Virus record (IMG/VR): IMGVR_UViG_3300030387_000070
Direction: 5' to 3' (one strand)
Source of the DNA: a virus
DNA length: 64,000 nucleotides
Each line of letters starts with the position of its first letter. Position 1 is the first letter of the stretch. A program made the translations under genes and the position numbers. Positions 955-20,742 of the stretch are shown here, piece by piece. The notes below the pieces were generated by a model. It ran no database searches. It saw nothing but the letters and a program-made list of their open reading frames with translations, and was not told the origin of the DNA.

Positions 955-956
955 CT

Positions 957-5823: not shown

Positions 5824-5828
5824 GAGTT

Positions 5829-6125: not shown

Positions 6126-6150
6126 TAGAATAATATAAAGGAGAATGAAT

Positions 6151-6324: not shown

Positions 6325-6344
6325 ATAGAATCGAGGTTTTAAAA

Positions 6345-6566
6345 ATGATTACAGTTGTTTATGACGATACGATGTGTAATGGTCCTTACCGTGTAGAGCA
6401 CAAAACAATGGAAGATGCGGTAGAGTCTGTTAATAATGATTTTGAGAGCTTGATGAAAGAATTGCGAGATGAAGGTTATGAACCTGAATGGATTCGTGAC
6501 GGTCATCATATGCTTGAGGTTTATGTTCCGAATACGTCTATTAACGCATGGTGGGATTTTGAGTAA
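6345..6566 (+). CDS. hypothetical protein
   Basis: ORF in array. Confidence 0.35.
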   Translation: MITVVYDDTMCNGPYRVEHKTMEDAVESVNNDFESLMKELRDEGYEPEWIRDGHHMLEVYVPNTSINAWWDFE

Positions 6567-6577
6567 GGAGAATTGAA

Positions 6578-6784
6578 ATGGACATTAACGAAATCAAAAT
6601 GTTTGAACAGAAGATGGTTGATAGCGCGTTTATTGACGCTGTTGATTATGATCCGAAGGTGGCTGCACGAGCTGTGGGAGCACGTAAGATGAAAATGAAG
6701 GGTGTGTGCTCCTTTAACGAATACATTGGTTATTTGCAGACGATTACCGGCAACGCAAAGTTGTTCTGGAAGTATCAGTTTTGA
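6578..6784 (+). CDS. hypothetical protein
   Basis: RBS AAGGAGAA upstream. Confidence 0.35.
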   Translation: MDINEIKMFEQKMVDSAFIDAVDYDPKVAARAVGARKMKMKGVCSFNEYIGYLQTITGNAKLFWKYQF

Positions 6785-6793
6785 GGTGATGAT

Positions 6794-7054
6794 ATGGTTT
6801 TGAAGCTTGAATTTACCGATGGTCACGAGCCATGGATATCATTTCCAATGAATAGAGAAGAGGCTTTAAACCTGTGGAATAAGCTGAGTAAGATGCCAAC
6901 GGTACGACCGGAGTTCAGGTTTGGCAAATTGAAGTGTCGCTGTGATTGTCTTGGCAACTGGTATGTTGCTCAGTGGTTTGATGGAATGCACAAGAGTAAG
7001 GAGTTCAGATATCTTGCCAACGCTTTGAAATACATGGAAAAAGAAACGGTTTAA
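6794..7054 (+). CDS. hypothetical protein
   Basis: RBS GAGGTGATG upstream. Confidence 0.35.
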   Translation: MVLKLEFTDGHEPWISFPMNREEALNLWNKLSKMPTVRPEFRFGKLKCRCDCLGNWYVAQWFDGMHKSKEFRYLANALKYMEKETV

Positions 7055-7076
7055 CGAATAGATTGTGAGGGTAAAA

Positions 7077-7337
7077 ATGTTTGTACTTATCAATACTTAT
7101 ATTGCAAAAGGTGAGAATTCATTTCTCCCAGAAGTTGTTTATAAAAAGGGTTTTAATACGATTCTTGAGGCGGAAAATGAAATGAACAAACAAGTGGACG
7201 ATATTCTTGTAAATCATTATTGTAAATATTATAAAGATGAAAGCGGTGAACAGAATTTTAGTGTTTTGCGATTAAAAGGTGATATTCGTATTGATGCTTG
7301 TGACGTATACGATTGGTGGAAAATCGTAGAGATTTGA
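7077..7337 (+). CDS. hypothetical protein
   Basis: RBS TGAGGG 5 nt before ATG 7077. Confidence 0.35.
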   Translation: MFVLINTYIAKGENSFLPEVVYKKGFNTILEAENEMNKQVDDILVNHYCKYYKDESGEQNFSVLRLKGDIRIDACDVYDWWKIVEI

Positions 7338-7365
7338 TAAAACAGTTCTTCTAGGAGGGAATAAT

Positions 7366-7557
7366 ATGATTGATAATAAGACTATGCTTTGCGCAATTGC
7401 AGGCAAACATAATATGGAAGTTCTTGAAGGGGCACTTGATACAGTCAATGAATTTTTGGATTCTGGTGCTGTTATTTATGTGAAAGTAAAAGGAAAAGAT
7501 GGTTTTGTAAAACTCGAAAAAATTGAAACCAGAGTGATGATTATGCCGTTTATTTAA
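7366..7557 (+). CDS. hypothetical protein
   Basis: RBS AGGAGGG upstream. Confidence 0.35.
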   Translation: MIDNKTMLCAIAGKHNMEVLEGALDTVNEFLDSGAVIYVKVKGKDGFVKLEKIETRVMIMPFI

Positions 7558-7579
7558 AAACATAAAGGAGTAAAACAAA

Positions 7580-8896
7580 ATGACTACTAACAATTCTATG
7601 ACCGTAATAACCTCTAAGCCCTTCGGCGCACTGAATGTGGATGTGTACCAGAATGATAAACATCAGTATTATATGACCCGTGAACAGATTGGGCGAGCAC
7701 TGGAATGTAAAGAACCTCGGAAGTACATTGCGAAGATTCATGAGCGTAATGCAGACCGTCTTGACCCGTTGAGCTCGGTCGTCAATTTGACGACTGAGGT
7801 CGGAAATTATACGCAAGAACGTCAAATATATATGTACAGTTTGCGTGGCGTAATGGAAATCTGCCGCCTTTCTCGTCAGCCGAAAGCAGATGCGTTTATG
7901 GATTTCTGCTGGGACATTATGGAATCTTTGATGCGTGGTGATTCCGTTCTTGCTACTCCTCAGATGGATGCTGCACTGAGTAAGGAGTTCATTGATGTAA
8001 GACTTCACGCTCTGTTTGATAGTGTGAAGAATCTTCAGAGTGAGCTTGATTCTACCCGGAAAAATCTTAGTGACCAGATCGAGGAGGCTCGTGCCACCAG
8101 TAATGAGGCACTGAATGTGATTAGCAGCGTATCTCAGTGTGTCCATCAGATTAAGGACAAGCAGATGGATGATGCGATTCGTTCTACCAGAAACTTCACT
8201 CCTCGTAAGGATGTGATGAGCGACTGGCGTAAGAAGATGTATGAACGTATCAATGTGATTGCCGCAATCAATGAAATGAAGGTTCAGGATGTATTTCGTG
8301 ATATTTACGAATATATGAATCGTGTCTATACCTTCGTTATTGAGGAAGAACGCAGAAAGTATTGTGCAAGAACCGGTCGCACTGGTCACATTCCTACGAT
8401 TGATATTGTTGAAGCAAGTACGATGTATAAGTCCATCTTTGGTGCTTTGGTTGAAGATTCGTATACTGAAGCAATCAATAAGAAGAAGGAAGAGACCGCT
8501 GAGCAGAAAGCTCTGCTTGAAGCTAAGGCTGTTGATGCAGCTCCTGAAGTAGATGTCTGTGTTGCTCCTGTGATTGAGGTAGAAGCTAAGGAAGTTGAGC
8601 CTGAACCGATTGTGGAGGAAAAGCCCAAGAAGCAGAGCGAAACGGCAAAAATTCTTTTCCCGATTCTGTTACCTTTGGCAGAAAAGCTTAATGATAAGCC
8701 TCAGTACAAGCACACTTATACTCTGATTTACGAGCGTATTGGCTATAAGAAAATGAATAATTTTTTTGTGGCTTACGAAAAGGCACATGGTAAGGCACCT
8801 CATCCGAAGACTAAGGTGTTTATCGAAAATGAAAAGAATCTCGCGCTGTTTAAGAAGACTGTGAAGCAGTTGATGAAAGAACAGGAGGATAAGTAA
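7580..8896 (+). CDS. phage antirepressor-like protein (Bro-N/ORF6N-like N-terminal domain)
   Basis: RBS AAAGGAG upstream; the N-terminal 120 aa (FGALNVDVYQNDKHQYYMTREQIGRALE...) resemble Bro-N/ORF6N antirepressor domains, with a Lys/Glu-rich C-terminus. Confidence 0.5.
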   Translation: MTTNNSMTVITSKPFGALNVDVYQNDKHQYYMTREQIGRALECKEPRKYIAKIHERNADRLDPLSSVVNLTTEVGNYTQERQIYMYSLRGVMEICRLSRQPKADAFMDFCWDIMESLMRGDSVLATPQMDAALSKEFIDVRLHALFDSVKNLQSELDSTRKNLSDQIEEARATSNEALNVISSVSQCVHQIKDKQMDDAIRSTRNFTPRKDVMSDWRKKMYERINVIAAINEMKVQDVFRDIYEYMNRVYTFVIEEERRKYCARTGRTGHIPTIDIVEASTMYKSIFGALVEDSYTEAINKKKEETAEQKALLEAKAVDAAPEVDVCVAPVIEVEAKEVEPEPIVEEKPKKQSETAKILFPILLPLAEKLNDKPQYKHTYTLIYERIGYKKMNNFFVAYEKAHGKAPHPKTKVFIENEKNLALFKKTVKQLMKEQEDK

Positions 8897-8956
8897 ATGT
8901 ATGTAATATCGAATGGTCACAACTATTGGAAGATTAATGAATTCGAGGTGTGAGTT

Positions 8957-9139
8957 ATGCTCAAATATGGAAATATAACGTGTAAACGTTGTGGTATTAC
9001 ATGGTATGGACCAAAATGCGGAAAGCTTTACTGTGAAGAGTGTCGTAAGGTTGTAAACAACGAGAAGAGTCTCAAATGGTACAGAAGTAATAGAGAGCTT
9101 GTTGCAAGGAATCGTGCAGAGAGAAAGGCAATGAGGTGA
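8957..9139 (+). CDS. zinc-ribbon small protein
   Basis: Contains CxxC...CxxC (CKRCG...CEEC). Confidence 0.35.
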   Translation: MLKYGNITCKRCGITWYGPKCGKLYCEECRKVVNNEKSLKWYRSNRELVARNRAERKAMR

Positions 9140-9144
9140 ATGTG

Positions 9145-9963
9145 ATGAGTGCAGTTGTTGAAAGAAAAGAAGAACAGATATCTAAATTGATCTATTTTAA
9201 TCCGAAGCCTTCTGTTCCGGCTAAAAAACGTGGTGTTACAAAAAGTAAGCAGAAGCGCAAGCGTAATATTTCTCCAATTAGAAGCTTGGATGATGTTCAA
9301 ATGATTTCGGAATACTTCTGGGATAAAAAGCAATATCGCAATTGGTGTCTATTTAATGTAGGTATTGCAACTGGTTTGCGTGCTAGTGATTTGCTCAAAT
9401 TGAAGGTTTCCGATATGTCTTATTGCCTTTATAATGGAAAGATTGAAGTGGTTGAAGACGCTGGAGTTTGCATCGTTGAAGAAAAAACATCTAAATATCG
9501 TGAAATCATTCTTACTCCAGAAGCGAGAGATATCGTTGAAACATACATTAAGATTGCGAATCTTGGATATGACGATTGGATGTTTCCGTCTCGGCAGGGG
9601 AGTTGGAAAAAGTCATTGAGGACAAATGGTGGAGATGGGAAAACTGGTATTCCTCATATTGCAGAACCCAAAAAGGCCGGTGATCCTATTGATGTTGATT
9701 CTTTTGCTCGTATCCTTCGTAATGCTGGCAGAGATTTGGGTCTTAATTACAAGATTGCATCTCATTCTTGCCGTAAGACATTTGGTTATCGTGAGATGTG
9801 TCTTAATAAGGATGACAACCAGGCATTGTCTTGGATTCAGGGTCAGTTGAATCATAGTAGTCAGGACATTACATTACGGTACGTTGGTTTTGATGAGGAT
9901 AAGGCAAAAGAATATTATAAGAAGACTTTTTATGGTGTGAATACACACAGCTTGGAAGACTGA
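9145..9963 (+). CDS. tyrosine site-specific recombinase (phage integrase family catalytic domain)
   Basis: Catalytic residues recognised by eye: Arg box GLRASDLLKLKV, HSCRKTFG (His-x-x-Arg) and LNHSSQDITLRYV (His plus the nucleophilic Tyr). Start is uncertain between GTG 9136, GTG 9142 and ATG 9145. Confidence 0.65.
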   Translation: MSAVVERKEEQISKLIYFNPKPSVPAKKRGVTKSKQKRKRNISPIRSLDDVQMISEYFWDKKQYRNWCLFNVGIATGLRASDLLKLKVSDMSYCLYNGKIEVVEDAGVCIVEEKTSKYREIILTPEARDIVETYIKIANLGYDDWMFPSRQGSWKKSLRTNGGDGKTGIPHIAEPKKAGDPIDVDSFARILRNAGRDLGLNYKIASHSCRKTFGYREMCLNKDDNQALSWIQGQLNHSSQDITLRYVGFDEDKAKEYYKKTFYGVNTHSLED

Positions 9964-9968
9964 GGTGT

Positions 9969-10655
9969 ATGATGGCTGATACTTATATTAAAATCTGGGA
10001 TACTTACGAGAGCTACTTCGAACCCCTTAGTGCTGCTGAGGTGGGGCGTCTGGTACTGGCGATGATGAAATACAAATCGTCTGGAACGGAGCCTGAACTT
10101 AACGGAAATGAGCGGTATGTTTGGCCTGCTGTGAAGAGAGATTTGGATAAAGATGCCGAATACATCGAAGGTAAGAGGATTTCTGGTAAAGCTGGTGGTT
10201 CATCAAGCAAGCGTAAGCAAAACGAAGCAAACGCAAGCAAAACAAAGCTAGAAAAAGAAAAAGAGAAAGAAAAAGATAAGATATCGTCTTCGTCTTGTGA
10301 TGAGATGACAACGACAAAACCTATCGAGGATGTTTTCCGAGAGAATATCGGGAAGCTTGGTGCTACTGGTCAAAAGGCTTTAGCAGAATATGTTAAGCGC
10401 ATGGGTGACGAACTTGTGCTTGCTGTGATTGGTAAGTGTTCTGATCTCGGCGGTAGCACATGGGCTTATGTGCGAAAAGCTCTTGATGAAGCAGAATCTC
10501 TTGGTTGCAAGACTGCTGATGATTATCGCCGGGCTTGTCCGATAGGGAGTGGTCGTAACACGAGAGTGGATAGACAATCTCCCAGTGGGAATGATTGGCT
10601 AAAAAATGCAACGAAACGTCGTTCACTAGTTAAAAGAGAACTGGAAACAGCATGA
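9969..10655 (+). CDS. putative replisome organizer / DnaD-like replication initiation protein
   Basis: The C-terminal region (GKLGATGQKALAEYVKRMGDELVLAVIGKCSDLG...YVRKALDEAESLG) is DnaD-like; a low-complexity Lys/Glu linker is encoded by DNA repeats. Confidence 0.4.
   Translation: MMADTYIKIWDTYESYFEPLSAAEVGRLVLAMMKYKSSGTEPELNGNERYVWPAVKRDLDKDAEYIEGKRISGKAGGSSSKRKQNEANASKTKLEKEKEKEKDKISSSSCDEMTTTKPIEDVFRENIGKLGATGQKALAEYVKRMGDELVLAVIGKCSDLGGSTWAYVRKALDEAESLGCKTADDYRRACPIGSGRNTRVDRQSPSGNDWLKNATKRRSLVKRELETA
10205..10280. repeat. iteron-like short direct repeats (AAGCAAA(A)C x3 plus GAAAAA x4) inside the replication-protein gene
   Basis: Seen directly: gtAAGCAAAACgAAGCAAACgcAAGCAAAACaaagc, then agaaaaagaaaaagagaaagaaaaag. 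Confidence 0.4.
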
Positions 10656-10670
10656 GTGGAGGTTTAAATT

Positions 10671-11072
10671 ATGGGACTGTTACTCGGTTTGGGTTTGCTT
10701 GGTGCAGCGTTTGGTATTGATGCAGTGAAGCAAGCACCGTTTGATAGGGCATATCGCCGTCTGGAAAATGAATGGGGAACTTGTACATCGGAAGAGAGTA
10801 AACGATGTGATGCTCTGAAATATGCCGTACAGAACGGTTTGTGCTTCGAGAATGAAAAGAAGCCTGTGATTGAGTGGCAGAAGCTGAGGGATCTTCAGTG
10901 GAAATATCAGCTGGCTGGCATCTCTTGGCCGAGAGAATCTGCGATTCGAGATGTGTGCCGTCTGGCGGCTCGTGACCGTGGATTTGAGTACAAAGGCTAT
11001 CTGCGAAACACGTTGACGTTTGGTTATATCACTGATCCGAAAAATATTTGCAAGCTTGGCATCGTAGATTGA
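10671..11072 (+). CDS. hypothetical protein
   Basis: RBS GGAGG upstream. Confidence 0.35.
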   Translation: MGLLLGLGLLGAAFGIDAVKQAPFDRAYRRLENEWGTCTSEESKRCDALKYAVQNGLCFENEKKPVIEWQKLRDLQWKYQLAGISWPRESAIRDVCRLAARDRGFEYKGYLRNTLTFGYITDPKNICKLGIVD

Positions 11073-11086
11073 AAGGAGATTTGAAA

Positions 11087-11392
11087 ATGAATAACACTCG
11101 TAGAAAAGCTATTAAGCAGACCATTGACCATTTTTGTTCCATCCGTAAGAAGCTGGAGGAACTTGTATCTGAGGTCGAAAGTGTAAAATCCGATGTTGAG
11201 GATATCCAGTGGGAAGAAGAAGAGTATCGTGATAATATGCCGGAGAACCTACAGGGAAGTGAACGGTATGACAAAGCAGATGAAGCTTGCACAAACCTGT
11301 CCGATGCTGTGGATGCTCTGGATGATATGATTGGTGCGTTGGATTTTGATTTTGGAGATGTGACTACATCTCTTGAGGAAGCAATGGAATGA
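11087..11392 (+). CDS. hypothetical acidic protein
   Basis: RBS AAAGGAGA before ATG 11087. Confidence 0.35.
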   Translation: MNNTRRKAIKQTIDHFCSIRKKLEELVSEVESVKSDVEDIQWEEEEYRDNMPENLQGSERYDKADEACTNLSDAVDALDDMIGALDFDFGDVTTSLEEAME

Positions 11393-11577
11393 TTAACAAA
11401 ACAAATCCATTGAGGAGAAATGCGTGGGCTGTGTTCTTGTACAGAGGTAGGCAAGTTTGTTCATACCTATTGCGTAATAGCAGTCTTGGTGATAAGGAAC
11501 GCATGGTAGAACTGCTGGCACGAAGGTACATGACAGAGCCTGAGAATATTGTTGTAGATATTGAATTTAGAGATTGA
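11389..11577 (+). CDS. hypothetical protein
   Basis: Start overlaps the upstream stop (ATGA). Confidence 0.3.
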   Translation: MINKTNPLRRNAWAVFLYRGRQVCSYLLRNSSLGDKERMVELLARRYMTEPENIVVDIEFRD

Positions 11578-11677
11578 GGTGATAGAGAATGACCGCATTT
11601 GTAATGTTTGCTTTTAATGTGGCACTGATAATAGCAGTGAATAATAGTCCGTTTGCGTTTTAAGTAGAGGCATGAAT

Positions 11678-11905
11678 ATGAAAGAACTGGAAGAAATTTA
11701 CAATCGATTATATGATGAATACATTGACGCTAGACGAGAGCATTTTGAGGCTGCTCTCGATATGAAAAAGAATGGTGACAGAATATATCTACATGGTAAA
11801 GTGCATGGGTTAGAAATTGCTATTAACATCGTCGATGAAGTGCTCGAAAAGGTTAAGGCAGAATATACCAAGGAAGCTTTTGACGTAGACCCATATAAAA
11901 CCTAA
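11678..11905 (+). CDS. hypothetical protein
   Basis: ATG 11678 sits 7 nt after AGAGG. Confidence 0.35.
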   Translation: MKELEEIYNRLYDEYIDARREHFEAALDMKKNGDRIYLHGKVHGLEIAINIVDEVLEKVKAEYTKEAFDVDPYKT

Positions 11906-11924
11906 ATTCTTTGGAGGATGGATA

Positions 11925-12137
11925 ATGAAGATTGAGCTAACTCTTAATGAAGCACGAGTGATTCAAGATGCACTTGATGTGACAAGTCTATGCAGGTCTG
12001 GATGTTATATGGGTTATAAGAGCGGCGACAAGGATTTGTGTTTTAGGCTTGAAAAAGATGGTAATTGGCATTGTAAGCTGATGCGAGAAATTGATTCCAT
12101 CAATGGCAAGCTTGAGGATGCAATGGACGGAAAGTGA
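11925..12137 (+). CDS. hypothetical Cys-containing protein
   Basis: RBS GGAGGATGG upstream. Confidence 0.35.
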   Translation: MKIELTLNEARVIQDALDVTSLCRSGCYMGYKSGDKDLCFRLEKDGNWHCKLMREIDSINGKLEDAMDGK

Positions 12138-12327
12138 TAAAATCCGGGTTCTTGTGGATATTTAACAAAAGGATGTGTGGACCGATGATATAACTATTGA
12201 TGACGTAGGATTATTAGTAAAATTTTGGTAATTTTGATAATTGTGTTGAATAATCTCTTTGTGCGGTGTATGCTTGAGACAACCTCAATACAAGATGGTC
12301 AAGCCAAAAGAATGTGAGGTTAATATA

Positions 12328-12462
12328 ATGTGGATTATGATAATTTTACTTATGGTATTGAATGCTGTGTGCGCATTTGGTCTGTTAGGAGCGCTTTCCG
12401 ACGCAGATGATCAGAGTGAGCGGCTGGAAATGAAACAGGGAAGGAATGGTCGAAATGGATAA
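12328..12462 (+). CDS. hypothetical small membrane peptide (44 aa)
   Basis: RBS TGAGGT upstream; hydrophobic N-terminus. Confidence 0.25.
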   Translation: MWIMIILLMVLNAVCAFGLLGALSDADDQSERLEMKQGRNGRNG

Positions 12463-12685
12463 TTTGAAACCGTGTCCATTCTGCGGTGGAGAAGTTACCA
12501 TAGCAGAGGGCGGTTATCGCCAAACACGATGGATGTATGTTACGAGAGGAAACAAAGAAAATAGGTGCAACTGCTATGTTATCATGGAAAGCAAAACTTA
12601 CGACTTTGATTCCTCTGAAATGGAAAAAGCAAAAATCAAAACCGACCTTATCGAAGCGTGGAATAAACGGATTTATAAAAACTAA
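12446..12685 (+). CDS. Lar-family restriction alleviation protein-like
   Basis: The N-terminal (M)DNLKPCPFCGG...CNC motif is the hallmark of the Lar family. Confidence 0.55.
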   Translation: MVEMDNLKPCPFCGGEVTIAEGGYRQTRWMYVTRGNKENRCNCYVIMESKTYDFDSSEMEKAKIKTDLIEAWNKRIYKN

Positions 12686-12704
12686 GATTTAGAAGGAGAT
12701 AATA

Positions 12705-12857
12705 ATGGGCGTATTAGTAGACCGGGAAACGGCAAAGAAAGTTGAAAGAATCTTTGAACATCCAAACGAAATCTACTCTGTATATCTCAAATCGTCTGAC
12801 GAAGCAGTCTGGCTCCAAGGAAAAGTTGAACTATACAAATATTTAAGAAGCTTGTAA
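12705..12857 (+). CDS. hypothetical small protein (50 aa)
   Basis: RBS AGAAGGAGA upstream. Confidence 0.3.
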   Translation: MGVLVDRETAKKVERIFEHPNEIYSVYLKSSDEAVWLQGKVELYKYLRSL

Positions 12858-12884
12858 AACTAAGTTCTACGGAGGAGATACATT

Positions 12885-13082
12885 ATGAAAAAGTTCGTTG
12901 CTCTTTTTGAAGGTTGGAATGATAAACACGATCATGAATGTATGTGCTATGTTATTGATGTGGATGATGACTTTGAAAGCATTTTGAGTGTTGAAGAACA
13001 GGCAGAGAGGATGGCTCGAAATGAATATCCTCATCTGAAAAGTTTTGAGACGCTTTACATCAAAGAACTGCTTAACAGATAA
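12885..13082 (+). CDS. hypothetical protein
   Basis: RBS GGAGGAGA upstream. Confidence 0.35.
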   Translation: MKKFVALFEGWNDKHDHECMCYVIDVDDDFESILSVEEQAERMARNEYPHLKSFETLYIKELLNR

Positions 13083-13101
13083 AACTAATCTTTTATAGGA
13101 G

Positions 13102-13680
13102 ATGACTTCGGTGATACTAACATTAGGTATCGACAATTTTGATAAAGACAAATTTGAAATTCCTCATAATTCAGAAAAATCACAGTTCTTGAATAAGCCG
13201 GCAGGAGGTTTGTGGGGTTCAACTTTTACTCCAAATTATAATTATGTAAGTGATTGGGCGATGTTTGTTTTTGAAAACGATTTTGCCACTTCTATATACC
13301 GCAATGGAATCGCATACGAGCTAAATTCTAACGCCAGAGTTTTAGACGTTGATACTCGTTATGATTTCGTCAAACTGTTGAAGAACTTTGGGTGCCTTTG
13401 GCTTCCTGGATGTGCTTTAATTTGCATTCAAAACAAACGATTTATAGATTGGGACAAGATTGTTAAGCTTTATGACGCAGTTCATTTTAGTCGAGAAGCG
13501 ATTATATCTTGTCGTTTTATAATGAATGAGGAACGATTGGATAATGGCAAAGTGTTTACTGTGTCCAATTTGTACTCGTATGATTGCGAGAGTTGGGTAG
13601 TGTGTAACCCCGATGTGATTGATATGAAATCGATTCGCAAGATCGAAATAGATAGTGAAGGACGATTGGTGAAAAGCTAA
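13102..13680 (+). CDS. hypothetical protein
   Basis: RBS TAGGAGATG upstream. Confidence 0.4.
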   Translation: MTSVILTLGIDNFDKDKFEIPHNSEKSQFLNKPAGGLWGSTFTPNYNYVSDWAMFVFENDFATSIYRNGIAYELNSNARVLDVDTRYDFVKLLKNFGCLWLPGCALICIQNKRFIDWDKIVKLYDAVHFSREAIISCRFIMNEERLDNGKVFTVSNLYSYDCESWVVCNPDVIDMKSIRKIEIDSEGRLVKS

Positions 13681-13699
13681 GTAAAAGGAGATGGCTACA

Positions 13700-14008
13700 A
13701 TGAAGCGAAGAGTAAATGGAGATAAGTTCAAACGTGCAAAACAGTACATTGACAATAATCTGGGGCCAACTGAATTTTTGGCTTTGTGTTATGACTTGTA
13801 TGATTTTGAGCATGGAGTAAATAATAAGCCGAGTGGTCCATTTAATAAGACTCTGGATGTTCTTGGAATGTGGGATGAAACAGACTCTGTGGCCGCAGCA
13901 ATCATGGACTCTGCACACAAGATGTTTGGAAAAATGGTGTTTATGCTGCTGGAAGACAATGTGACGGAATATCTGGACTATGATGTGGATTGTTTGCACA
14001 GTGATTGA
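13700..14008 (+). CDS. hypothetical protein
   Basis: ATG 13700 sits 9 nt after AAGGAG. Confidence 0.35.
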   Translation: MKRRVNGDKFKRAKQYIDNNLGPTEFLALCYDLYDFEHGVNNKPSGPFNKTLDVLGMWDETDSVAAAIMDSAHKMFGKMVFMLLEDNVTEYLDYDVDCLHSD

Positions 14009-14059
14009 TAAAACCAATATTTTTGAAAGGAAGGGATTCTTATTAACTCTAATTTGTTA

Positions 14060-14653
14060 ATGAATCGTGAGCAAAGTATTGCTATTGTGTGTATAATGTG
14101 CTTGCTGGCAGGGAATTTGATATCGAAGATTAGCCCGGTGAATCAGAACAATTCGTACCTTTATAATAGTAGTCCTCCGGCAATTAGTATTGTGCAACAA
14201 GAGGAAAAGGAACCAGAAGTCATTGTAGAGACTGTTACTGAAACGAAGGTGGTGAACTTTAGTCAGGGTAAACATGAGCTCACTGACGATGAGCGTGCTC
14301 TTGCGGAGCAGATTGTTGCTTGTGAAGCAGGTGCTGATAGTTTGGAAGGCCAAATGGCTGTGGCCCAATGTCTTTATGATTCCGCTGTGCTTGATGGTTT
14401 AACCATTCAGCAGGTCTTTAAGAAGTATGGTTATAGCTCCTTATATAATAGGAAGGTGACGGCAGAGAACGAACTGGCTGTGTCTATGGTATTTGATTAC
14501 GGCGCTAAGATTTCAGACAAACCCATTCAATGGTTTGTGACCCCGGCGTCAGCTCCCGGCAGTTGGCACGAGCGTGGAGCAACCTTTGCTGGACAATTTG
14601 GCGCACACAGGTTTTATTATGACGCGAAGCTGGTTGTGGATGATGCTGAGTAA
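14060..14653 (+). CDS. SleB-domain cell wall hydrolase with N-terminal membrane anchor
   Basis: Hydrophobic N-terminus; the SleB/Hydrolase_2-type core (ALAEQIVACEAGADSLEGQMAVAQCLYDSAVL...) is recognisable by eye. Confidence 0.6.
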   Translation: MNREQSIAIVCIMCLLAGNLISKISPVNQNNSYLYNSSPPAISIVQQEEKEPEVIVETVTETKVVNFSQGKHELTDDERALAEQIVACEAGADSLEGQMAVAQCLYDSAVLDGLTIQQVFKKYGYSSLYNRKVTAENELAVSMVFDYGAKISDKPIQWFVTPASAPGSWHERGATFAGQFGAHRFYYDAKLVVDDAE

Positions 14654-14686
14654 ATGGCATCATCTAAAATTTCGATAAATAATACA

Positions 14687-14738
14687 ACAAAAAGATGTGT
14701 AATATATTGACGAAAACAAAAAGATGTGTATAATATAT
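14687..14738. repeat. tandem 29-bp direct repeat (ACAAAAAGATGTGTA-ATATAT, two copies)
   Basis: Seen directly; overlaps the promoter at 14707-14734. Confidence 0.6.
14707..14734 (+). promoter_or_regulatory. sigma70-type promoter (TTGACG, 16 nt spacer, TATAAT)
   Basis: -35 at 14707-14712 and -10 at 14729-14734, upstream of the CDS at 14777. Confidence 0.45.
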
Positions 14739-14776
14739 CTTGAAAGTTGTTTATGTGAGCGGAAGGCGGTATTTCA

Positions 14777-15103
14777 ATGAGTGAGAAAAAGGTTTTGGAA
14801 ATTATACAGGTTGAGAACTTTTTGAAGTACATAAGAAAAAAGCGAGTGTGGGTTTGTTTTATTTGCAATGGTGTGGATGTTCACATGATCTGCAAAAAGA
14901 TGGATGACATTGGTGTAGAGACACATGGGATTGTCAAAGGCATTGAATTTTTTGGAAACGAAAGTCATGTTGAGTTGCGGCAAGAATGCTACGAAGTAAG
15001 GAGAGTTGAGTTTAGGCCGGGCGATAAAGAGAAAGCGTATGAGATGATCTTCAATAACACCAGCGTGTTTGTGTCAGAGAATCCCGAGTTGTACGGGCAC
15101 TAA
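14777..15103 (+). CDS. hypothetical protein
   Basis: ORF downstream of the promoter. Confidence 0.35.
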   Translation: MSEKKVLEIIQVENFLKYIRKKRVWVCFICNGVDVHMICKKMDDIGVETHGIVKGIEFFGNESHVELRQECYEVRRVEFRPGDKEKAYEMIFNNTSVFVSENPELYGH

Positions 15104-15122
15104 AAATATTTTCAAAAACCTC

Positions 15123-15151
15123 TTGACTTATATGGTTGTATCCTGTATAAT
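15123..15151 (+). promoter_or_regulatory. consensus sigma70 promoter (TTGACT, 17 nt spacer, TATAAT) overlapping an inverted copy of the 21-bp motif
   Basis: -35 at 15123-15128 and -10 at 15146-15151; motif copy GTATCCTGTATAATATAGCTATG at 15138-15160. Confidence 0.6.
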
Positions 15152-15194
15152 ATAGCTATGGAACGGAGCTACACTATTATAGAGGAGAAAGATT

Positions 15195-15614
15195 ATGGAC
15201 AACAATATTGACCCAAAGGTCGGAGAGGTTTGGTTGGTCGATTTGTCAAATGCGACAGGTCATCAGCAGCGCGGTATTCGACCGTTCGTTGTGACGAGCA
15301 ACAATAAGCGCAACTTCTTTAGCCCCACAATCAAAGGGAATCCATTGTCTTCCAGAATATACAAGCGCTCTCCGGTTCATGTTCTACTTTCAAAGGAAGA
15401 TTGTGATTTCTTAGAAGTTGACAGTATCGTTCTTTGTGAAGAGACTGACACGCTTAACAAAGGACAGTTCATCAAAAAACTTGGTGTCTTGTCGGAACGT
15501 CAGATGAATATGATTGCAATGGCAAGATGTAAGGATGAACCGTTTTTGCTCGCAGCATTCCTGAGCGGCGTACAACATACTATGGAATTTCAGAATTTTG
15601 CCGCATTTGCTTGA
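15195..15614 (+). CDS. MazF/PemK-family endoribonuclease toxin-like protein
   Basis: RBS GAGGAGAAAG upstream; the N-terminus VGEVWLVDLSNATGHQQRGIRPFVVTSNN and overall pattern match the PemK/MazF fold; no MazE-like antitoxin seen upstream. Confidence 0.65.
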   Translation: MDNNIDPKVGEVWLVDLSNATGHQQRGIRPFVVTSNNKRNFFSPTIKGNPLSSRIYKRSPVHVLLSKEDCDFLEVDSIVLCEETDTLNKGQFIKKLGVLSERQMNMIAMARCKDEPFLLAAFLSGVQHTMEFQNFAAFA

Positions 15615-15667
15615 TTTTTTATAATGTTTAATGGTACACTACATATAATAAGAAGGAGTGTGCCACT

Positions 15668-16594
15668 ATGCTTACTGAAGAAAAAATCAACGCTTTTGCC
15701 GAAAGGTATTCTGATAAAAGCGGTAAGTTTGTTGTATCGACACTTAACAATGTTATGATCTATGAGGCCGAGTGTGGGTATGAGTTGTTTGATTTTACAA
15801 AAAATGATTTTGTAAAGATGTTTGCAAAATACAATTGGGTGAACTCAAGTCGTTCATTTAGAAATGTGAAATCAATAATCACTGGCTACATCAAAAGTGA
15901 AGATCGTACAAGTTTGTATGACTTGGCTGAATTTTCGGAAAATGACGTAAGTTCAGACGATATGTATGCAGACAAGTATTTTGCATCGGTTGATGAATTT
16001 GTTGACTTATTAAATAAATACGAAGAGCCATATCAGATTCGTATGAACGTGATTGCTGTATTATACTGGATCGGACTTACCGCTGGTGAAATTGTTAATC
16101 TAACAATCAATGATGTTGATTTTGAATCTCGTACTGTTCTCAATAGGACTGGTATTGATGCGAGGTTGATGGATATCATCAAGCAGTGTTATGAAATGAA
16201 ACAATATGATGCTCCCAACATGGGAGGATACAGAACGTTTTATGTCATAAACGGTGATTACATCCTTCGCAAAACAGAGGACAGGACTGGAGCAGACAGT
16301 GACCCAAAGATATCTACAAATACAATTCATACCTATTTTATGAGATTGAATGATATTCTCGAAAAAAGAGGTTGTTCTAAGATTTTGGACCAAAGACATT
16401 TAACAAGAAACAACGAGTATATCAAGGTTTATGACTATTGCAAAACTCATCCAGAATTTAATCTTGTAGAACTTAGCTTCGGAAATGGTAAAGATCCTCT
16501 TGCAGACATTATCGGAAGAAAGTGTAGCAAGGTAGCCTATATTAGCTTCCGGCAAGGATACAAGGGCTGGATTGAGTATTTCCATAAAAATTAA
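15668..16594 (+). CDS. hypothetical protein (308 aa)
   Basis: RBS AAGGAG upstream. Confidence 0.4.
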   Translation: MLTEEKINAFAERYSDKSGKFVVSTLNNVMIYEAECGYELFDFTKNDFVKMFAKYNWVNSSRSFRNVKSIITGYIKSEDRTSLYDLAEFSENDVSSDDMYADKYFASVDEFVDLLNKYEEPYQIRMNVIAVLYWIGLTAGEIVNLTINDVDFESRTVLNRTGIDARLMDIIKQCYEMKQYDAPNMGGYRTFYVINGDYILRKTEDRTGADSDPKISTNTIHTYFMRLNDILEKRGCSKILDQRHLTRNNEYIKVYDYCKTHPEFNLVELSFGNGKDPLADIIGRKCSKVAYISFRQGYKGWIEYFHKN

Positions 16595-16598
16595 AAAT

Positions 16599-16621
16599 AG
16601 GGGCTTCGGCCCCTTAATTTT
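16599..16621 (+). terminator. rho-independent terminator (AGGGGC-TTCG-GCCCCT plus T-run)
   Basis: Perfect 6-bp GC stem with a TTCG loop followed by TAATTTT. Confidence 0.6.
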
Positions 16622-16628
16622 AACACGT

Positions 16629-16649
16629 TAGCTATATAATACAGGATAC
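16629..16649 (+). promoter_or_regulatory. 21-bp promoter-associated motif TAGCTATATAATACAGGATAC, direct copy
   Basis: Contains TATAAT at 16635-16640, about 20 nt before the RBS of the Pnkp-like gene. Confidence 0.5.
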
Positions 16650-16670
16650 TTATTAGAAAGGGAAATGTAG

Positions 16671-18884
16671 ATGAGAACGCTTTTGCTGTTCCGTGGAGCA
16701 CCAGGTTGTGGGAAGTCCACCTATATTAAAGAGCATAATCTTGAGCAGTATGTATTGAATGCTGATACACTTCGACTTATGTGCCAGAGCGCACAGGAAA
16801 CACCTGCCGGGCGGATGGAGATCTCTCCGCAGAATGATGATGTTGTATGGGAGATGCTTTTCAAACTGCTTGAGGTGCGTATGAGTCATGGCGAGTTTAC
16901 CGTGATTGATGCAACGAATTCCAAGACGGTCGAAATGAATCGTTATAAGAATCTTGCAAAACAGTATCGTTATCGGATGTATGTTATTGACATGACGGAC
17001 CTTCCGATTGAGGAATGCAAACGAAGAAACGCTCAGAGAGAATGGCTGAATCGAGTTCCTGAAGCGGCCATTGATAAGATGTACGCTCGGTTTGCTACTC
17101 AAAAAGTTCCTTCTGGTGTGACAGTTCTTCCTTCTACTACGGATGTGATGTCCGATTTGAACTACTGTCCGAATGACTTCAACCAGTGGAAGAAGATCCA
17201 TATCATCGGTGATGTTCATGGCTGTTATACTTGTTTAAGTGAATACCTTGGTGAGATGAAGGACGACGAACTGTATATCTTCGTTGGTGATTATCTCGAT
17301 CGTGGCATCGAAAACGTTGAGGTATTCAAGTTCTTGTGTGATGTTGTAAATAACAACCGCAAGAATGTGATCCTTTTGGAGGGCAATCATGAGTGTTGGC
17401 TAAACAAGTGGGGGCATGATGAACCGGTTCAGAGTGAAGAGTTTGCAAACTACACTCGTCCGCAGCTCTTTAAAGCCGGTATTGACAAGAACACTGCTCG
17501 TAAGATCTATTCCAGAGTAGGCCAATGTGCCTACTTTGAGTATGATGGGAAGCGGTATTTCGTGAGCCACGGTGGTTTGAGTTATCTGCCTTATTTTCTT
17601 CCTTTCGTATCTGCTGATCAGATGATTAAAGGTGTAGGTCGCTATCCTGATATGCTAACCGTGGCTGAGTCTTGGGAAAAATCGATGCCGGATAGCTACA
17701 TTCAGATCTTCGGCCATCGAAATGTGCAGGATGTTCCTATTGATATGGGGCATCGGTGCTACAATCTCGAAGGAAAAATCGAGTTTGGTGGATATCTCCG
17801 TTGCGTTGAACTTGAACACGGTCAGTCAATCAAATGTGTAGAAACCAAGAACGATGTGTTCCGAAAAGAGGAGCCAAAGACTGAAACTGCCGTTGAAATG
17901 AAAACTGAGTTCGATAACGCAGAACTTGTTAGTAAGATGCGTCAAAGCAAATATGTGTTTGAGAAGCGATTCGGAGATATTTCTTCTTTCAACTTCTCTC
18001 GTGAAGCATTTTATAAGAAGCACTGGGATGAGGTTTCTACCAAAGCAAGGGGATTGTTCATTAACACAAAGACGAATAAGATTGTAGCTCGAAGCTATGA
18101 TAAGTTCTTTGCGGTTGATGAGCGGAATGAAACGAGAATTGGAAACCTACAGAACACTTTGAAGTTCCCAGTGACTGCATATCTAAAAGAGAACGGATTT
18201 CTTGGTATCATTTCGTATGATGCAGAACAGGATGGTCTGTTCATTGCAAGTAAATCCACTCCTGAAGGGCCTTTTGCAGATATGTTCCGAAAGATTATTA
18301 TGGATACTACTTCCGATGAAGATCGTAAGAATCTGAAGGAGGTTGCCAAGGAGCATGGCTCCATCATCTTTGAGGTTATTGATCCTGTGAATGATGCTCA
18401 TATCATAGAATACAAGAAACCGCACATTGTTTTGCTGGATGTTGTTGCAAACGATATGAATTTCAGTGTGATAGATTATGATGACTTGAAACGTGTCGCA
18501 GAAAAGTGTCATCTGCAGATTAAGGAGAAGGTTAAAACCTTTGAGAACTGGAGTGAATTCTATCCTTGGTATGAGGAAGTCATGAATGAGAACTATCTGT
18601 ACCATGACATCGAGCATGTTGAAGGCTTTGTTCTGAGAGATAGTAACAACTTTATGTTCAAGTTAAAGCTTCCTTATTATAAGCATTGGAAGTTCCTGCG
18701 TGGTGTTATGAAGAGCGTCCAGAAACGTGGCTATTACGAAAACACCGCCAAGCTGTTTACGGCTGAAGATAATTTGTTCTATGGTTGGATGCGTGAGCAA
18801 CGAGAGAAAGATCAAGAGGCGTTCAGCAAGAAGGGAATCATTCAGCTGCGAAATGAGTTCTATGCAAGTCAGCAGAAGAGTTGA
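16671..18884 (+). CDS. polynucleotide kinase-phosphatase-ligase (Pnkp-like RNA repair enzyme): P-loop kinase, calcineurin-like phosphoesterase and nucleotidyltransferase (ligase-like) domains
   Basis: Walker A GAPGCGKST at the N-terminus; metallophosphoesterase motifs GDVHG, GDYLDRG and GNHE; C-terminal nucleotidyltransferase motifs KENG (KxNG), EGFVLR and KLKLPYYK. Confidence 0.65.
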   Translation: MRTLLLFRGAPGCGKSTYIKEHNLEQYVLNADTLRLMCQSAQETPAGRMEISPQNDDVVWEMLFKLLEVRMSHGEFTVIDATNSKTVEMNRYKNLAKQYRYRMYVIDMTDLPIEECKRRNAQREWLNRVPEAAIDKMYARFATQKVPSGVTVLPSTTDVMSDLNYCPNDFNQWKKIHIIGDVHGCYTCLSEYLGEMKDDELYIFVGDYLDRGIENVEVFKFLCDVVNNNRKNVILLEGNHECWLNKWGHDEPVQSEEFANYTRPQLFKAGIDKNTARKIYSRVGQCAYFEYDGKRYFVSHGGLSYLPYFLPFVSADQMIKGVGRYPDMLTVAESWEKSMPDSYIQIFGHRNVQDVPIDMGHRCYNLEGKIEFGGYLRCVELEHGQSIKCVETKNDVFRKEEPKTETAVEMKTEFDNAELVSKMRQSKYVFEKRFGDISSFNFSREAFYKKHWDEVSTKARGLFINTKTNKIVARSYDKFFAVDERNETRIGNLQNTLKFPVTAYLKENGFLGIISYDAEQDGLFIASKSTPEGPFADMFRKIIMDTTSDEDRKNLKEVAKEHGSIIFEVIDPVNDAHIIEYKKPHIVLLDVVANDMNFSVIDYDDLKRVAEKCHLQIKEKVKTFENWSEFYPWYEEVMNENYLYHDIEHVEGFVLRDSNNFMFKLKLPYYKHWKFLRGVMKSVQKRGYYENTAKLFTAEDNLFYGWMREQREKDQEAFSKKGIIQLRNEFYASQQKS

Positions 18885-19001
18885 GTTAAAATAGACATTT
18901 TATCGTGATTTTCGTTAAAATAATTAACGAAGTATCGTGATATTTATTCCTCCGAAAATGCCATGCGTGGGGCTGACAGCCGGGAAAGACCGGCGATATA
19001 T

Positions 19002-19086
19002 GCCAAGGTGCTGCAAATGGGAGACAGGGCGAGCCCAAACCTCGCTGTGGAAACACATGCGGTTTCGAATACCGTCCTTGGCACCA
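19002..19086 (+). tRNA. tRNA-Leu(CAA), type II, CCA encoded
   Basis: Hand-folded: acceptor GCCAAGG/CCTTGGC, U8, T-loop TTCGAAT, long variable arm, anticodon loop CCCAAAC with an unusual C33, discriminator A73. Confidence 0.55.
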
Positions 19087-19114
19087 GATAATTTTATGAA
19101 GAAAGGATGATTGC

Positions 19115-19798
19115 ATGGTTAATAGGGCAGAAGATCATATTGGTGATGTCTTTGATTTGTTTGAGGTGATTGATGTTATTCGAGATGAAAATAATATTCC
19201 ATCTTACAAATGTCGATGTAAAGAATGTGGATGGACAGGGCTAAAAAATATAGCTCAGGCGAGAGCGGTTAAAGTGTGTCGGCATAAACAATCGAGTGGC
19301 GATTATAGAAATTTTTCTACACGGTGGAAAAACAAAAGAATCGGACGAATCTTTCATGGAATGAAAGCAAGATGCTATGATGTTGATGATAAAAACTATA
19401 TAACGTATGGCATGAAAGGAATTTGTGTTTATCAAGAATGGTTGGATAATCCAAAGTCATTTGAAGAGTGGTCGTTGAAAAATGGATACAAAGATAGTTT
19501 GACAATCGATAGAATTGATTCGACAAAAGATTACTGTCCTGATAATTGCAGATGGATATCATTGGAAGATAATTCAAAATATAAATCCACAACTCGAATG
19601 TTAGAAGTAGATGGTGAAATACATACGGGACGTGATTGGGCGGCAGAATTAGGGCTTGGAACAAACACGATAAATAAATATGTAAGAAGATACGGAGAAG
19701 ATAATACAAAACAATTTATAAGAAGAGTATTAAAGGACCCGGATAAAGTGAATTCTCGACAAGGGAAACAAACTATCTATAATCTTTACATGAACTAA
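19115..19798 (+). CDS. HNH homing endonuclease (HNH_3-type)
   Basis: HNH signature IDRIDSTKDYCPDNCRWISLEDN; low GC relative to neighbours; sits between tRNA genes. Confidence 0.55.
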   Translation: MVNRAEDHIGDVFDLFEVIDVIRDENNIPSYKCRCKECGWTGLKNIAQARAVKVCRHKQSSGDYRNFSTRWKNKRIGRIFHGMKARCYDVDDKNYITYGMKGICVYQEWLDNPKSFEEWSLKNGYKDSLTIDRIDSTKDYCPDNCRWISLEDNSKYKSTTRMLEVDGEIHTGRDWAAELGLGTNTINKYVRRYGEDNTKQFIRRVLKDPDKVNSRQGKQTIYNLYMN

Positions 19799-19805
19799 AT
19801 TGAAA

Positions 19806-19847
19806 TGGCCCAGTGTAAAAACTGAGTACATTGGGCCAAATATTTAT
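19806..19847 (+). terminator. rho-independent terminator (TGGCCCA...TGGGCCA plus AT-rich tail)
   Basis: 7-bp inverted repeat at 19806-19812 and 19832-19838 after the HNH gene. Confidence 0.45.
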
Positions 19848-19851
19848 ATGA

Positions 19852-19935
19852 GCACCCGTGGTGAAATTGGCAACCACGATGGACTTAAAATCCATTCCCG
19901 GTAACGGGTTGCGAGTCCGAGTCTCGCCGGGTGCA
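19852..19935 (+). tRNA. tRNA-Leu(TAA), type II
   Basis: Acceptor GCACCCG/CGGGTGC, anticodon loop CTTAAAA, 15-nt variable arm, A73. Confidence 0.65.
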
Positions 19936-19940
19936 TATTT

Positions 19941-20016
19941 CTGGGCGTAGCGAAGTTGGCATCGCACCTGTTTTGGGAACAGGGGACCGCAAGTTCAAAT
20001 CTTGTCGCTCAGACCA
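19941..20016 (+). tRNA. tRNA-Pro(TGG), CCA encoded
   Basis: Anticodon loop TTTGGGA, T-loop TTCAAAT, acceptor with one G-U pair, ends ACCA. Confidence 0.65.
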
Positions 20017-20023
20017 CTACGAG

Positions 20024-20111
20024 GATTCGCCAAGTTGGTAAGGCAGCGGAATTTGACTCCGCCAGCGCTGAACAAGCGGTCACAGGTTCGAGTCCTGTAT
20101 CCTCGGCTTAT
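20024..20111 (+). tRNA. anomalous type-II tRNA with anticodon TTG (Ser-like G73 body)
   Basis: Acceptor CGAGGAT/ATCCTCG, U8, D-arm GCC-AAGTTGGTAA-GGC, anticodon arm GCGGA-ATTTGAC-TCCGC, 19-nt variable arm, T-loop TTCGAGT, discriminator G. Confidence 0.45.
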
Positions 20112-20113
20112 AT

Positions 20114-20198
20114 GCGGGTATGGTGTAACTGGCAGCCACGTCAGATTTAGGATCTGATGCCGAAAGGCGTGAGGGATCGTGCCCCTCTACCCGTACCA
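20114..20198 (+). tRNA. tRNA-Leu(TAG), type II, CCA encoded
   Basis: Anticodon arm TCAGA-TTTAGGA-TCTGA, 13-nt variable arm, A73, CCA present. Confidence 0.6.
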
Positions 20199-20298
20199 CG
20201 GTCATAGAATGGTTGCGTACCGTTTGTTGATCTCCTTTACTATTATTCCCGGCTCGCCAGTGATGGTGCAGTAGTGCTTTGTAAGCTGGGTTTTCATG

Positions 20299-20372
20299 CA
20301 GCGGTCGTACAACGGCTAGTACATCAGCCTTCCAAGCTGAGGATGAGGTTTCGACTACCTTTCGCTGCTCCA
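20299..20372 (+). tRNA. tRNA-Gly(TCC), CCA encoded
   Basis: Acceptor GCAGCGG/TCGCTGC, anticodon loop CTTCCAA, T-loop TTCGACT, ends TCCA. Confidence 0.6.
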
Positions 20373-20560
20373 ATCTTGTATGGGTAGGATCTTTAGCGGT
20401 CAGATCCAGCCGCGCCTGTGCAAGATACCACCCCGAAAGGGGCGAGATATAGGAAATGTGCATCGCTGTTATTCCTTCCTCGTCTATATGATATAGATGC
20501 AATAGTGTTTTATAAGGAAGGTCCCCAGTTGAATAGTTGCAGCTGTTTGACTGGTAATAT

Positions 20561-20634
20561 GGGATAGTAGCTCAGTTGGTCAGAGCTGGCGGCTCATAAC
20601 CGCTTGGTCGCGAGTTCAAATCTTGCCTGTCCCA
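20561..20634 (+). tRNA. tRNA-Met(CAT), elongator-like
   Basis: Acceptor GGGATAG, D-arm GCTC-AGTTGGTCA-GAGC, anticodon loop CTCATAA, T-loop TTCAAAT; the 1-72 pair is formed, so not an initiator. Confidence 0.6.
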
Positions 20635-20742
20635 CTAACCCGATAGGGTGAATACATAGAATTTGCTAGAAATTTTGTTTTATGGGCGAATAAATAATAT
20701 GACGTTGATACGTCTATTATTTTTCGCTAATTTTTAAAGTTT

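Follow-up and report, generated by a model that had tools for sequence, protein, structure and literature searches.

The 64,000-nt stretch of viral DNA analysed here (IMG/VR record IMGVR_UViG_3300030387_000070; hereafter the window) carries a gene for a predicted SleB/CwlJ-like peptidoglycan hydrolase, followed by a hairpin, a direct repeat that overlaps a promoter, and an operon of three genes. The window represents the early/replication arm of an SPbeta-like prophage of ~134 kb that has inserted into a rubrerythrin gene of a gut host of ~57% GC. In the list of open reading frames (ORFs), the hydrolase frame runs from 14054 to 14653 on the plus strand and encodes 199 amino acids (aa) from a TTG, or 197 aa from the ATG at 14060; the ORF is real and conserved. 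An earlier reading made from the letters alone (the sequence-only reading) had described a membrane-anchored, SleB-type cortex-lytic hydrolase and had quoted the peptide ALAEQIVACEAGADSLEGQMAVAQCLYDSAVL, which corresponds to residues 80-111. The features of the gene are as follows, with confidence given as the predicted local distance difference test (pLDDT) score of the AlphaFold2 (AF2) model and constraint as the ratio of nonsynonymous to synonymous polymorphism (pN/pS).

14060..14653, plus strand: hydrolase coding sequence, 197 aa from ATG; predicted exported Hydrolase_2-superfamily (SleB/CwlJ-like) peptidoglycan hydrolase
14078..14122, plus strand: N-terminal hydrophobic segment, residues 7-21, from Kyte-Doolittle values and an AF2 helix; signal-anchor or uncleaved/cleavable signal peptide
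14135..14269, plus strand: low-complexity Pro/Ser/Gln/Glu-rich linker, residues 26-70; predicted disordered; pLDDT 53-75; pN/pS 0.48
14273..14629, plus strand: predicted SleB-fold catalytic domain, residues 72-190; pLDDT >90; Foldseek matches 4fet/4f55; profile E 4e-8; pN/pS 0.068
14324..14326, plus strand: encodes Glu89, the counterpart of the first Glu in the 'GESRGE' motif of SleB (alignment to 4f55)

Relationship of the hydrolase to SleB

The relationship to SleB was evident from relatives of the hydrolase, from a family profile and from the predicted structure. The family comprises 812 representatives at 50% clustering (E ≤ 1e-3), and PF07486 was matched by 98 of 107 aligned relatives, with a best E of 5.5e-12. 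A profile of the family alignment matched the SleB catalytic-domain structures 4f55 and 4fet in PDB with E values of 4-5e-8 (best 4.4e-8). The AF2 model had a mean pLDDT of 84, exceeding 90 over residues 72-190, and when it was compared with PDB by Foldseek only 4fet and 4f55 were returned at E < 1e-3 (TM-score on the target 0.72-0.74, probability 1.0). In the BFVD viral structure library, the model matched proteins named cell wall hydrolase or SleB. One of these, UniProt A0A8S5VDW9, is 90% identical to the hydrolase and is named 'Spore cortex-lytic enzyme, lytic transglycosylase', so the gene is of a known kind in phages. The hydrolase also matched phrog_18750 (function unknown) in PHROGs with E 4e-17. 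Its only Pfam match when searched alone was TM2 (E 0.04), the precomputed Pfam assignment was blank for all 120 close homologues listed, and no other family claimed the protein in the domain searches, so the outcome that the sequence-only reading had named as its refutation did not occur.

Glu89, Gly97 and His170 are invariant, Glu89 being present in 107/107 family members and in 80/80 alleles of the phage lineage. In the alignment, Glu89 is paired with the Glu of GESRGE in SleB, which we take to be the catalytic residue of that enzyme. Likeness to SleB extends over the Glu motif (CEAGADSLEGQMAVAQC versus GESRGEPYLGQVAVAAV) and a shared C-terminal HRF(F/Y) strand. Among the 80 alleles, the domain had a pN/pS of 0.068, compared with 0.34 for the anchor and 0.48 for the linker, the least constrained part, pointing to strong purifying selection on the catalytic domain and weaker selection on the anchor and linker. 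From the family alignment and the model, the protein is very probably an exported murein hydrolase of the Hydrolase_2 fold.

The superfamily assigned by the sequence-only reading is thus supported, whereas its wording 'SleB-type cortex-lytic' is too specific. The SleB equivalog TIGR02869 did not match the hydrolase, and relatives reached 34-46 bits against a cut-off of 236.5. Pfam found no PG_binding_1 domain in the protein, whose N-terminus consists of a hydrophobic helix and a disordered linker instead. Because the equivalog scores are far under the cut-off and the PG-binding domain is absent, the protein is a divergent hydrolase of the Hydrolase_2 superfamily and not SleB proper. Compared with SleB/CwlJ of Bacillus (PF07486; 4F55, 4FET), which should share the same catalytic fold as judged by the model, it shows 15-17% identity, carries an anchor and linker in place of the N-terminal PG_binding_1 domain, and is encoded in a phage early operon. 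Among neighbouring genes scanned with Pfam and PHROGs there was no match to YpeB; the short ORF at 12705-12857 was scanned against PADLOC only.

Anchor and start codon

The proposed N-terminal anchor was borne out as a hydrophobic segment: residues 6-24 (SIAIVCIMCLLAGNLISKI) have a mean Kyte-Doolittle value of 2.06, and residues 3-21 form a helix in the AF2 model. Such a segment precedes the domain in 100/107 family members, some of which carry 50-140 cytoplasmic residues ahead of it. These long N-termini indicate that the segment serves the family as an anchor rather than only as a signal peptide. We also considered a lipoprotein and rejected this, as there is no Cys after the LLAG sequence.

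The start of the gene differs among alleles. Relatives start at a GTG located 9 codons upstream of 14060; the position of the ATG is ATA or ACA there, and the frame between the two is open and conserved. In the window the GTG of the relatives is GGG, and alleles with GGG have ATG at 14060. From the allele sequences, this looks like a start-codon switch within 14027-14062.

A short N-terminal segment would also suit an auxiliary or alternative endolysin of the signal-anchor-release (SAR) or secreted type, which would accumulate at the membrane and aid lysis once the holin collapses the membrane potential. The hydrolase segment examined for SAR-type release, IAIVCIMCLLAGNLI, has a Kyte-Doolittle value of 2.06 and ~40% small or polar residues, and a moderately hydrophobic stretch of 15 residues with Cys, Ala, Gly and Asn ahead of a muralytic fold would be in keeping with such an enzyme. 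In addition, Hydrolase_2 is a recognised lysin catalytic domain (PMC8223927), and Schwartz et al. raised the possibility of phage cwlJ/sleB homologues being repurposed for use as endolysins (PMC10294663). Many family members, however, differ from SAR domains in their strongly hydrophobic anchors and long cytoplasmic N-termini.

The hydrolase gene lies apart from the lysis cassette

Among the ORFs scanned in the 64-kb window, no holin, lysis or structural gene was found; the phage genes there are exclusively of early, replication and nucleotide-metabolism types. A circularly permuted relative (contig ..._112762) carries a 92%-identical hydrolase, and the genes past its att site are, in order, a Tn916-type integrase, a type I dehydroquinase, an endolysin, a Holin_LLH protein, two membrane proteins and tail fibres. 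The endolysin has 215 aa with Peptidase_M15_3 and PG_binding_1 domains. By its domain content, this M15_3/LLH gene set beside the tail fibres is a canonical lysis cassette, and on the prophage map ~80 kb separate it from the hydrolase, the two lying in opposite transcription arms. The sequence-only statement that the hydrolase lies far from any lysis cassette and has no holin beside it therefore agrees with both the window and the relative. The type I 3-dehydroquinase gene of the relative (locus coordinates 12734-13486, minus strand, E 2e-70), between the integrase and the endolysin, may be metabolic cargo.

The distant homologues of the hydrolase showed a similar arrangement. In two cultured phages, Faecalibacterium phage FP_Lagaffe and Roseburia phage Shimadzu, 34-37%-identical homologues are located between an exonuclease or methylase and Erf/SSB, and each phage has a separate endolysin after its tail genes, which in FP_Lagaffe is adjoined by an annotated holin. 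We surveyed the neighbours at 40 diverse loci, comprising 38 GTDB genomes (mostly Clostridia) and these two phages. The recurrent same-strand neighbours were an RNase_T exonuclease (13 loci), a DnaC/IstB-like loader (13), SSB (12), ERF (6) and RecU (6). Since recombination and replication genes recur beside the hydrolase at these loci, early-gene placement is a property of the hydrolase subfamily. Among close relatives, the hydrolase gene and the 108-aa, MazF-like and 308-aa genes that follow it were all present with fixed spacing in 80/80 loci, which had been anchored on the 308-aa gene, and the genes upstream of the hydrolase varied.

Because a separate lysis cassette is present in the same lineage and the homologues are found in early modules, the hydrolase is most likely an accessory enzyme of the early arm rather than the main endolysin. 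The endolysin that the sequence-only reading had offered as one possibility is disfavoured by the same cassette. We also consider the SAR or secreted lysin unlikely, given the ~80 kb and opposite transcription arm that separate the gene from the holin and endolysin, and given that distant homologues, too, lie within recombination/replication modules, in phages with an endolysin of their own.

Phage proteins annotated as 'cell wall hydrolase SleB' (PHROG 18750, Shimadzu orf40, FP_Lagaffe AUV56394 and A0A8S5VDW9) belong to the same subfamily, with an anchor and a Hydrolase_2-like domain. As in the window, their genes are located in an early recombination/replication module apart from the endolysin. 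The phage SleB relatives occur in 45-48-kb phages, whereas the hydrolase described here is in a ~134-kb SPbeta-like prophage beside an MrpR-like operon. In the literature searched, we found no characterisation of these phage SleB-like proteins and no role for the anchored subfamily. The T5-like phage AKFV33 encodes an extra SleB-type hydrolase, ORF81, among its early genes and has its own lysozyme and holin (PMC3326045); its host is Gram-negative, and ORF81 is likened to the hydrolase by description, not by sequence.

The sequence-only reading had also raised a germination-manipulating enzyme. In this case the hydrolase would be a cortex-specific lytic enzyme that interferes with sporulation or triggers germination of lysogenic spores. 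Its sole solved structural relatives are the germination enzymes SleB, a Spore_YtfJ gene is present in the host neighbourhood, and muramic-lactam specificity would explain how an early exported hydrolase avoids premature lysis. Nevertheless, the idea gained no support from the analysis: the family scores far under the SleB equivalog threshold and has no PG-binding domain, the neighbours scanned with Pfam matched neither YpeB nor any other germination protein, no sporulation-type promoter was identified, and phages of Gram-negative hosts commonly carry SleB-like genes too. Furthermore, homologues are found in early modules of a Roseburia phage and, at the same early-module position, of a phage of Faecalibacterium prausnitzii, which is not known to sporulate. 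In favour of the idea, gut phages of spore-formers show an enrichment of K01449 (cwlJ/sleB) homologues, their function being untested (PMC10294663). On balance, a cortex-specific role seems improbable to us, even more so than a SAR-type lysin.

A conserved direct repeat at the promoter of the next operon

The region from the end of the hydrolase gene to the next operon, and a related site upstream, contain the following features.

14637..14666, plus strand: hairpin of 11 bp across the hydrolase stop codon, then UAAAAUUU (U-rich); probable intrinsic terminator
14686..14707, plus strand: direct repeat copy 1, core AACAAAAAGATGTGT; adjoins the -35 hexamer from the upstream side
14715..14736, plus strand: direct repeat copy 2, same core; covers the spacer and the -10 hexamer
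14707..14734, plus strand: sigma-70-type promoter TTGACG-16-TATAAT; 11/12 positions match; both hexamers conserved in relatives
12163..12180, plus strand: third box copy TAACAAAAGGATGTGTGG, core 12165-12177; within a conserved intergenic block at ~12138-12327

The hairpin was found as an inverted repeat with a predicted folding energy of -17.2 kcal/mol (z -3.96), and it folds alike in a relative. It is a probable intrinsic terminator that closes the hydrolase operon. Since this conserved hairpin follows the hydrolase, the repeat promoter belongs to the next transcription unit and not to the hydrolase. The sequence-only reading had correctly placed a TTGACG-16-TATAAT promoter over the repeat. 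It had described the repeat as a tandem duplication of a 29-bp unit; the repeat is real and its start-to-start spacing is 29 nt, but the copies are a 22-nt direct repeat, 91% identical without gaps, and not a full 29-bp unit. The 15-mer ACAAAAAGATGTGTA is exact in both copies and has 3 matches at ≤2 mismatches in the window, compared with 0.28 expected. Tandem Repeats Finder reported nothing at the repeat because just two partial copies are present.

Comparison of 45 intergenic sequence variants revealed that both copies keep ACAAAA-N-G-N-TGT(G), and that variation at the two N positions of one copy is independent of that in the other. Among these variants, the 3′ half is fixed in copy 2, where it forms the -10 hexamer, and drifts in copy 1. 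In the window, 3 occurrences of the core ACAAAA-N-G-N-TGTG were found versus 0.04 expected. The third occurrence is located in an intergenic block of ~190 nt that is conserved in most relatives, even where the flanking genes differ, and that lies upstream of the variable gene block ending with the hydrolase. A weight-matrix scan for the box, covering the window, ~57 kb of a relative and 10 kb of the left arm, gave no strong site other than the three boxes (12163, 14685 and 14714), all in the same orientation and all overlapping or adjoining promoter elements.

Within 12138-12462, an extended -10-like element, TGATATAAC, was noted by eye, and a 44-aa single-pass membrane protein without a family match (12328-12462) opens the operon that ends in the hydrolase. 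Two other assignments of the boxes were rejected. A sigma-H or sporulation-sigma promoter was excluded by eye, as the variants do not keep the needed bases, and copy 1 does not form a second promoter, having no -35 element and a -10-like part that drifts among relatives.

As judged from these sequences, the boxes are putative operators, an interpretation that we hold with moderate confidence and that fits the 'duplicated operator' of the sequence-only reading well, the promoter being that of the next operon. Alternatively, the repeat could be a neutral local duplication of the promoter or an A-rich UP-like element, kept through the close kinship of these phages. The compared relatives are indeed close (hydrolases 80-100% identical), so conservation is weak evidence; in addition, the 3′ half of copy 1 drifts, the 29-nt spacing places the copies on different helix faces, just three boxes were found, and promoter-like sites as a class were not enriched (59 found versus 64 expected in 1-20000). 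In contrast, constrained and free positions coincide between the two copies across the 45 variants, an independent third copy is located in another conserved promoter region, all three boxes lie on or beside core promoter elements, and the operon encodes a candidate member of a repressor family whose monomers read long asymmetric boxes. A non-operator origin is therefore the less likely of the two explanations, although it has a substantial share of the probability.

The downstream operon encodes a candidate repressor

Three genes follow the repeat promoter.

14777..15103, plus strand: 108-aa protein (p108), function unknown; first gene after the repeat promoter; no family match; in 80/80 relatives
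15195..15614, plus strand: MazF/PemK-like toxin gene; PF02452 E 2e-19; phrog_1936; own near-consensus promoter-like site at 15123-15151
15668..16594, plus strand: candidate MrpR/YopR/SroF-family protein, 308 aa, last gene after the repeat promoter; candidate repressor; predicted tyrosine-recombinase fold

The 308-aa protein weakly matched PF22822 (MrpR_N_CB) with E 7.4e-4, and PF22823 (MrpR_C_cat) is recorded on nearly all of its orthologues. The first catalytic Arg of tyrosine recombinases is replaced by Thr in this protein (GLTAGE versus GLRISE). When its low-confidence AF2 model (pLDDT 59.5) was compared with known structures, the phi3T SroF-DNA complex, YopR and MrpR (9rd5, 8bpz, 8bj6 and 8a0a) ranked above Cre and other recombinases.

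MrpR/SroF is the master repressor of SPbeta, is encoded last in its operon, and binds SPBRE at ~10 early promoters, including that of its own operon (PMC10516654). SroF binds its long non-palindromic box as a monomer (bioRxiv 10.1101/2025.11.27.690993). By analogy, direct asymmetric boxes over promoter elements would fit the SroF/MrpR monomer binding mode. Like SPbeta MrpR (YopR) and phi3T SroF, the 308-aa protein is a predicted recombinase-fold protein that lacks a catalytic residue, and its gene closes an operon with non-palindromic promoter boxes; a further box at another early promoter is also in line with SPbeta and phi3T. The operon differs from that of SPbeta in having three genes rather than six, and the boxes number three rather than ~10. 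Based on this analogy, we tentatively propose the MrpR-like 308-aa protein as the binder of the boxes, a match that we rate somewhat below even chances.

No recognisable antitoxin accompanies the MazF-like gene. In SPbeta and phi3T, according to the literature, the repressor operon and the arbitrium system act through host MazEF, and the phage MazF beside the MrpR-like gene may be related to this link by analogy. No arbitrium genes were identified.

The prophage and its host flank

The junction with the host chromosome is near 61147/61148, and the sequence from 61148 on contains the last 25 codons of the rubrerythrin gene and then a host gene.

61436-63994, minus strand: Cu-exporting P-type ATPase, host; 61.5% GC

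The host flank is 99.9% identical to host contigs that have no prophage at this site, in which the neighbourhood contains tuf, fusA, rpoC, scpAB and the Spore_YtfJ gene. The GC content is 40.8% in the phage, compared with ~57% in the host flank and 61.5% in the ATPase gene, an unusually large gap. Relatives in IMG/VR are 125-140 kb long. The rightward arm in the window encodes early genes, a DnaE-type polymerase, helicase, primase, ligase, NrdD, ThyX and dUTPase. The leftward-transcribed arm beyond the window encodes a YonO-like RNA polymerase (Pfam RdRP), ClpP and PhoH; in a relative, the YonO-like protein has 927 aa (minus strand, locus coordinates 4078-6861, Pfam RdRP E 2e-14) and is adjoined by the ClpP and PhoH genes. 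By its gene content, this RdRP/ClpP/PhoH group marks the start of the leftward arm and supports the SPbeta-like classification. Among polymerases of cultured phages, the closest is that of Brevibacillus phage Sundance (32% identity). A megablast search of annotated phages with the 13-16 kb region returned no match.

Two other classifications were considered and rejected. A phage-plasmid, suggested by PemK and 'MrpR', does not agree with a window that ends in host chromosome or with MrpR as the SPbeta repressor family, and the integrase is of the Tn916-type tyrosine class, not a serine recombinase. A 76-aa HTH_17 protein (60807-61037, E 8e-10), a likely excisionase, is the last phage gene, and in the circular relative the HTH_17 gene is followed by the Tn916-type tyrosine integrase gene (locus coordinates 11030-12250). 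A second gene of the tyrosine-recombinase family (9136-9963, Phage_integrase, E 1e-15) is located in the middle of the early region and is neither the MrpR-like gene nor that of the terminal integrase.

Downstream of the MrpR-like gene, 16671-18884 encodes a 737-aa kinase-phosphatase-RNA ligase fusion that looks like a tRNA-repair enzyme of the Pnkp/Rnl type, and just 3′ of it, at 19002-20635, are seven tRNA genes (three Leu, Pro, Gln, Gly and Met). The tRNA genes and the repair enzyme may be related to the difference in GC content between phage and host or to defence against anticodon nucleases. In another relative (ENA NODE_113, 11.3 kb), a two-component system, an ABC transporter, a sigma-70 region 4 protein and a large serine recombinase (188-8610) lie directly upstream of the hydrolase block, an insert that looks like a mobile cassette in the variable region.

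Discussion

The reading that we favour, with fair but limited confidence, is that the gene encodes an accessory early exported wall hydrolase and that the next operon is controlled by operator boxes. The enzyme would be exported with a short N-terminal anchor, a flexible linker of ~45 residues and a C-terminal domain of the SleB/CwlJ fold in which the SleB-aligned Glu is intact. By homology to SleB, it should cut glycan strands as a lytic transglycosylase, and tethering would restrict it to the wall layers closest to the membrane. Its gene would end an operon running from the promoter region at ~12.16-12.3 kb to the hairpin at 14637-14666. Made early in lytic growth, the enzyme may remodel the wall locally from the membrane face, which is the role that we favour. 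The three boxes would be operators through which a SroF/MrpR-type monomer repressor, or another phage regulator, co-regulates both operons.

Several results weigh against this reading. The hydrolase alone gave no PF07486 match at E ≤ 1 in the Pfam HMMER search, the check that the sequence-only reading had proposed, and searches of NCBIfam, PADLOC and PDB sequences with it gave nothing useful, so its family link rests on transitive and structural evidence and not on direct matches. The hydrophobic stretch is ~15 residues long and could be a cleaved signal peptide, in which case the enzyme would be released and not tethered. In this allele there is no Shine-Dalgarno sequence at a normal distance from the ATG or the TTG of the hydrolase, and early timing is read solely from gene position. 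As for the boxes, just three at two promoters were found in the ~120 kb examined, compared with ~10 SPBRE sites in SPbeta; they are unlike the phi3T box in sequence; and the 29-nt spacing of the copies is a non-integral number of helical turns. Finally, the PF22822 score of the 308-aa protein (20.6 bits) is below the Pfam gathering threshold of 27, its AF2 model is poor, and the profile of its orthologues matches no PDB sequence.

SleB-like 'cell wall hydrolases' occur commonly in phage genomes, and taken alone the gene adds an ordinary annotation. The findings are mildly useful in three respects. The anchored subfamily is consistently found in early modules away from the endolysin in unrelated Clostridia phages. 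The hydrolase is under strong purifying selection. Moreover, in a very common ~134-kb gut prophage it has a cis-element in common with an SPbeta-type repressor operon.

In a wider interpretation, which we consider a long shot, anchored SleB-fold hydrolases would be a conserved early function of Clostridia phages that is distinct from lysis and wired to the lysogeny switch through the shared boxes. Candidate roles would then include degradation of nascent cortex, or re-shaping of the wall that blocks host escape into dormancy or division. If the enzyme is cortex-specific, it would allow the published proposal that gut phages manipulate sporulation to be examined in a concrete case. The pairing of boxes and repressor, if true, would extend the SroF/MrpR system from Bacillus to a Bacillota gut host of ~57% GC.

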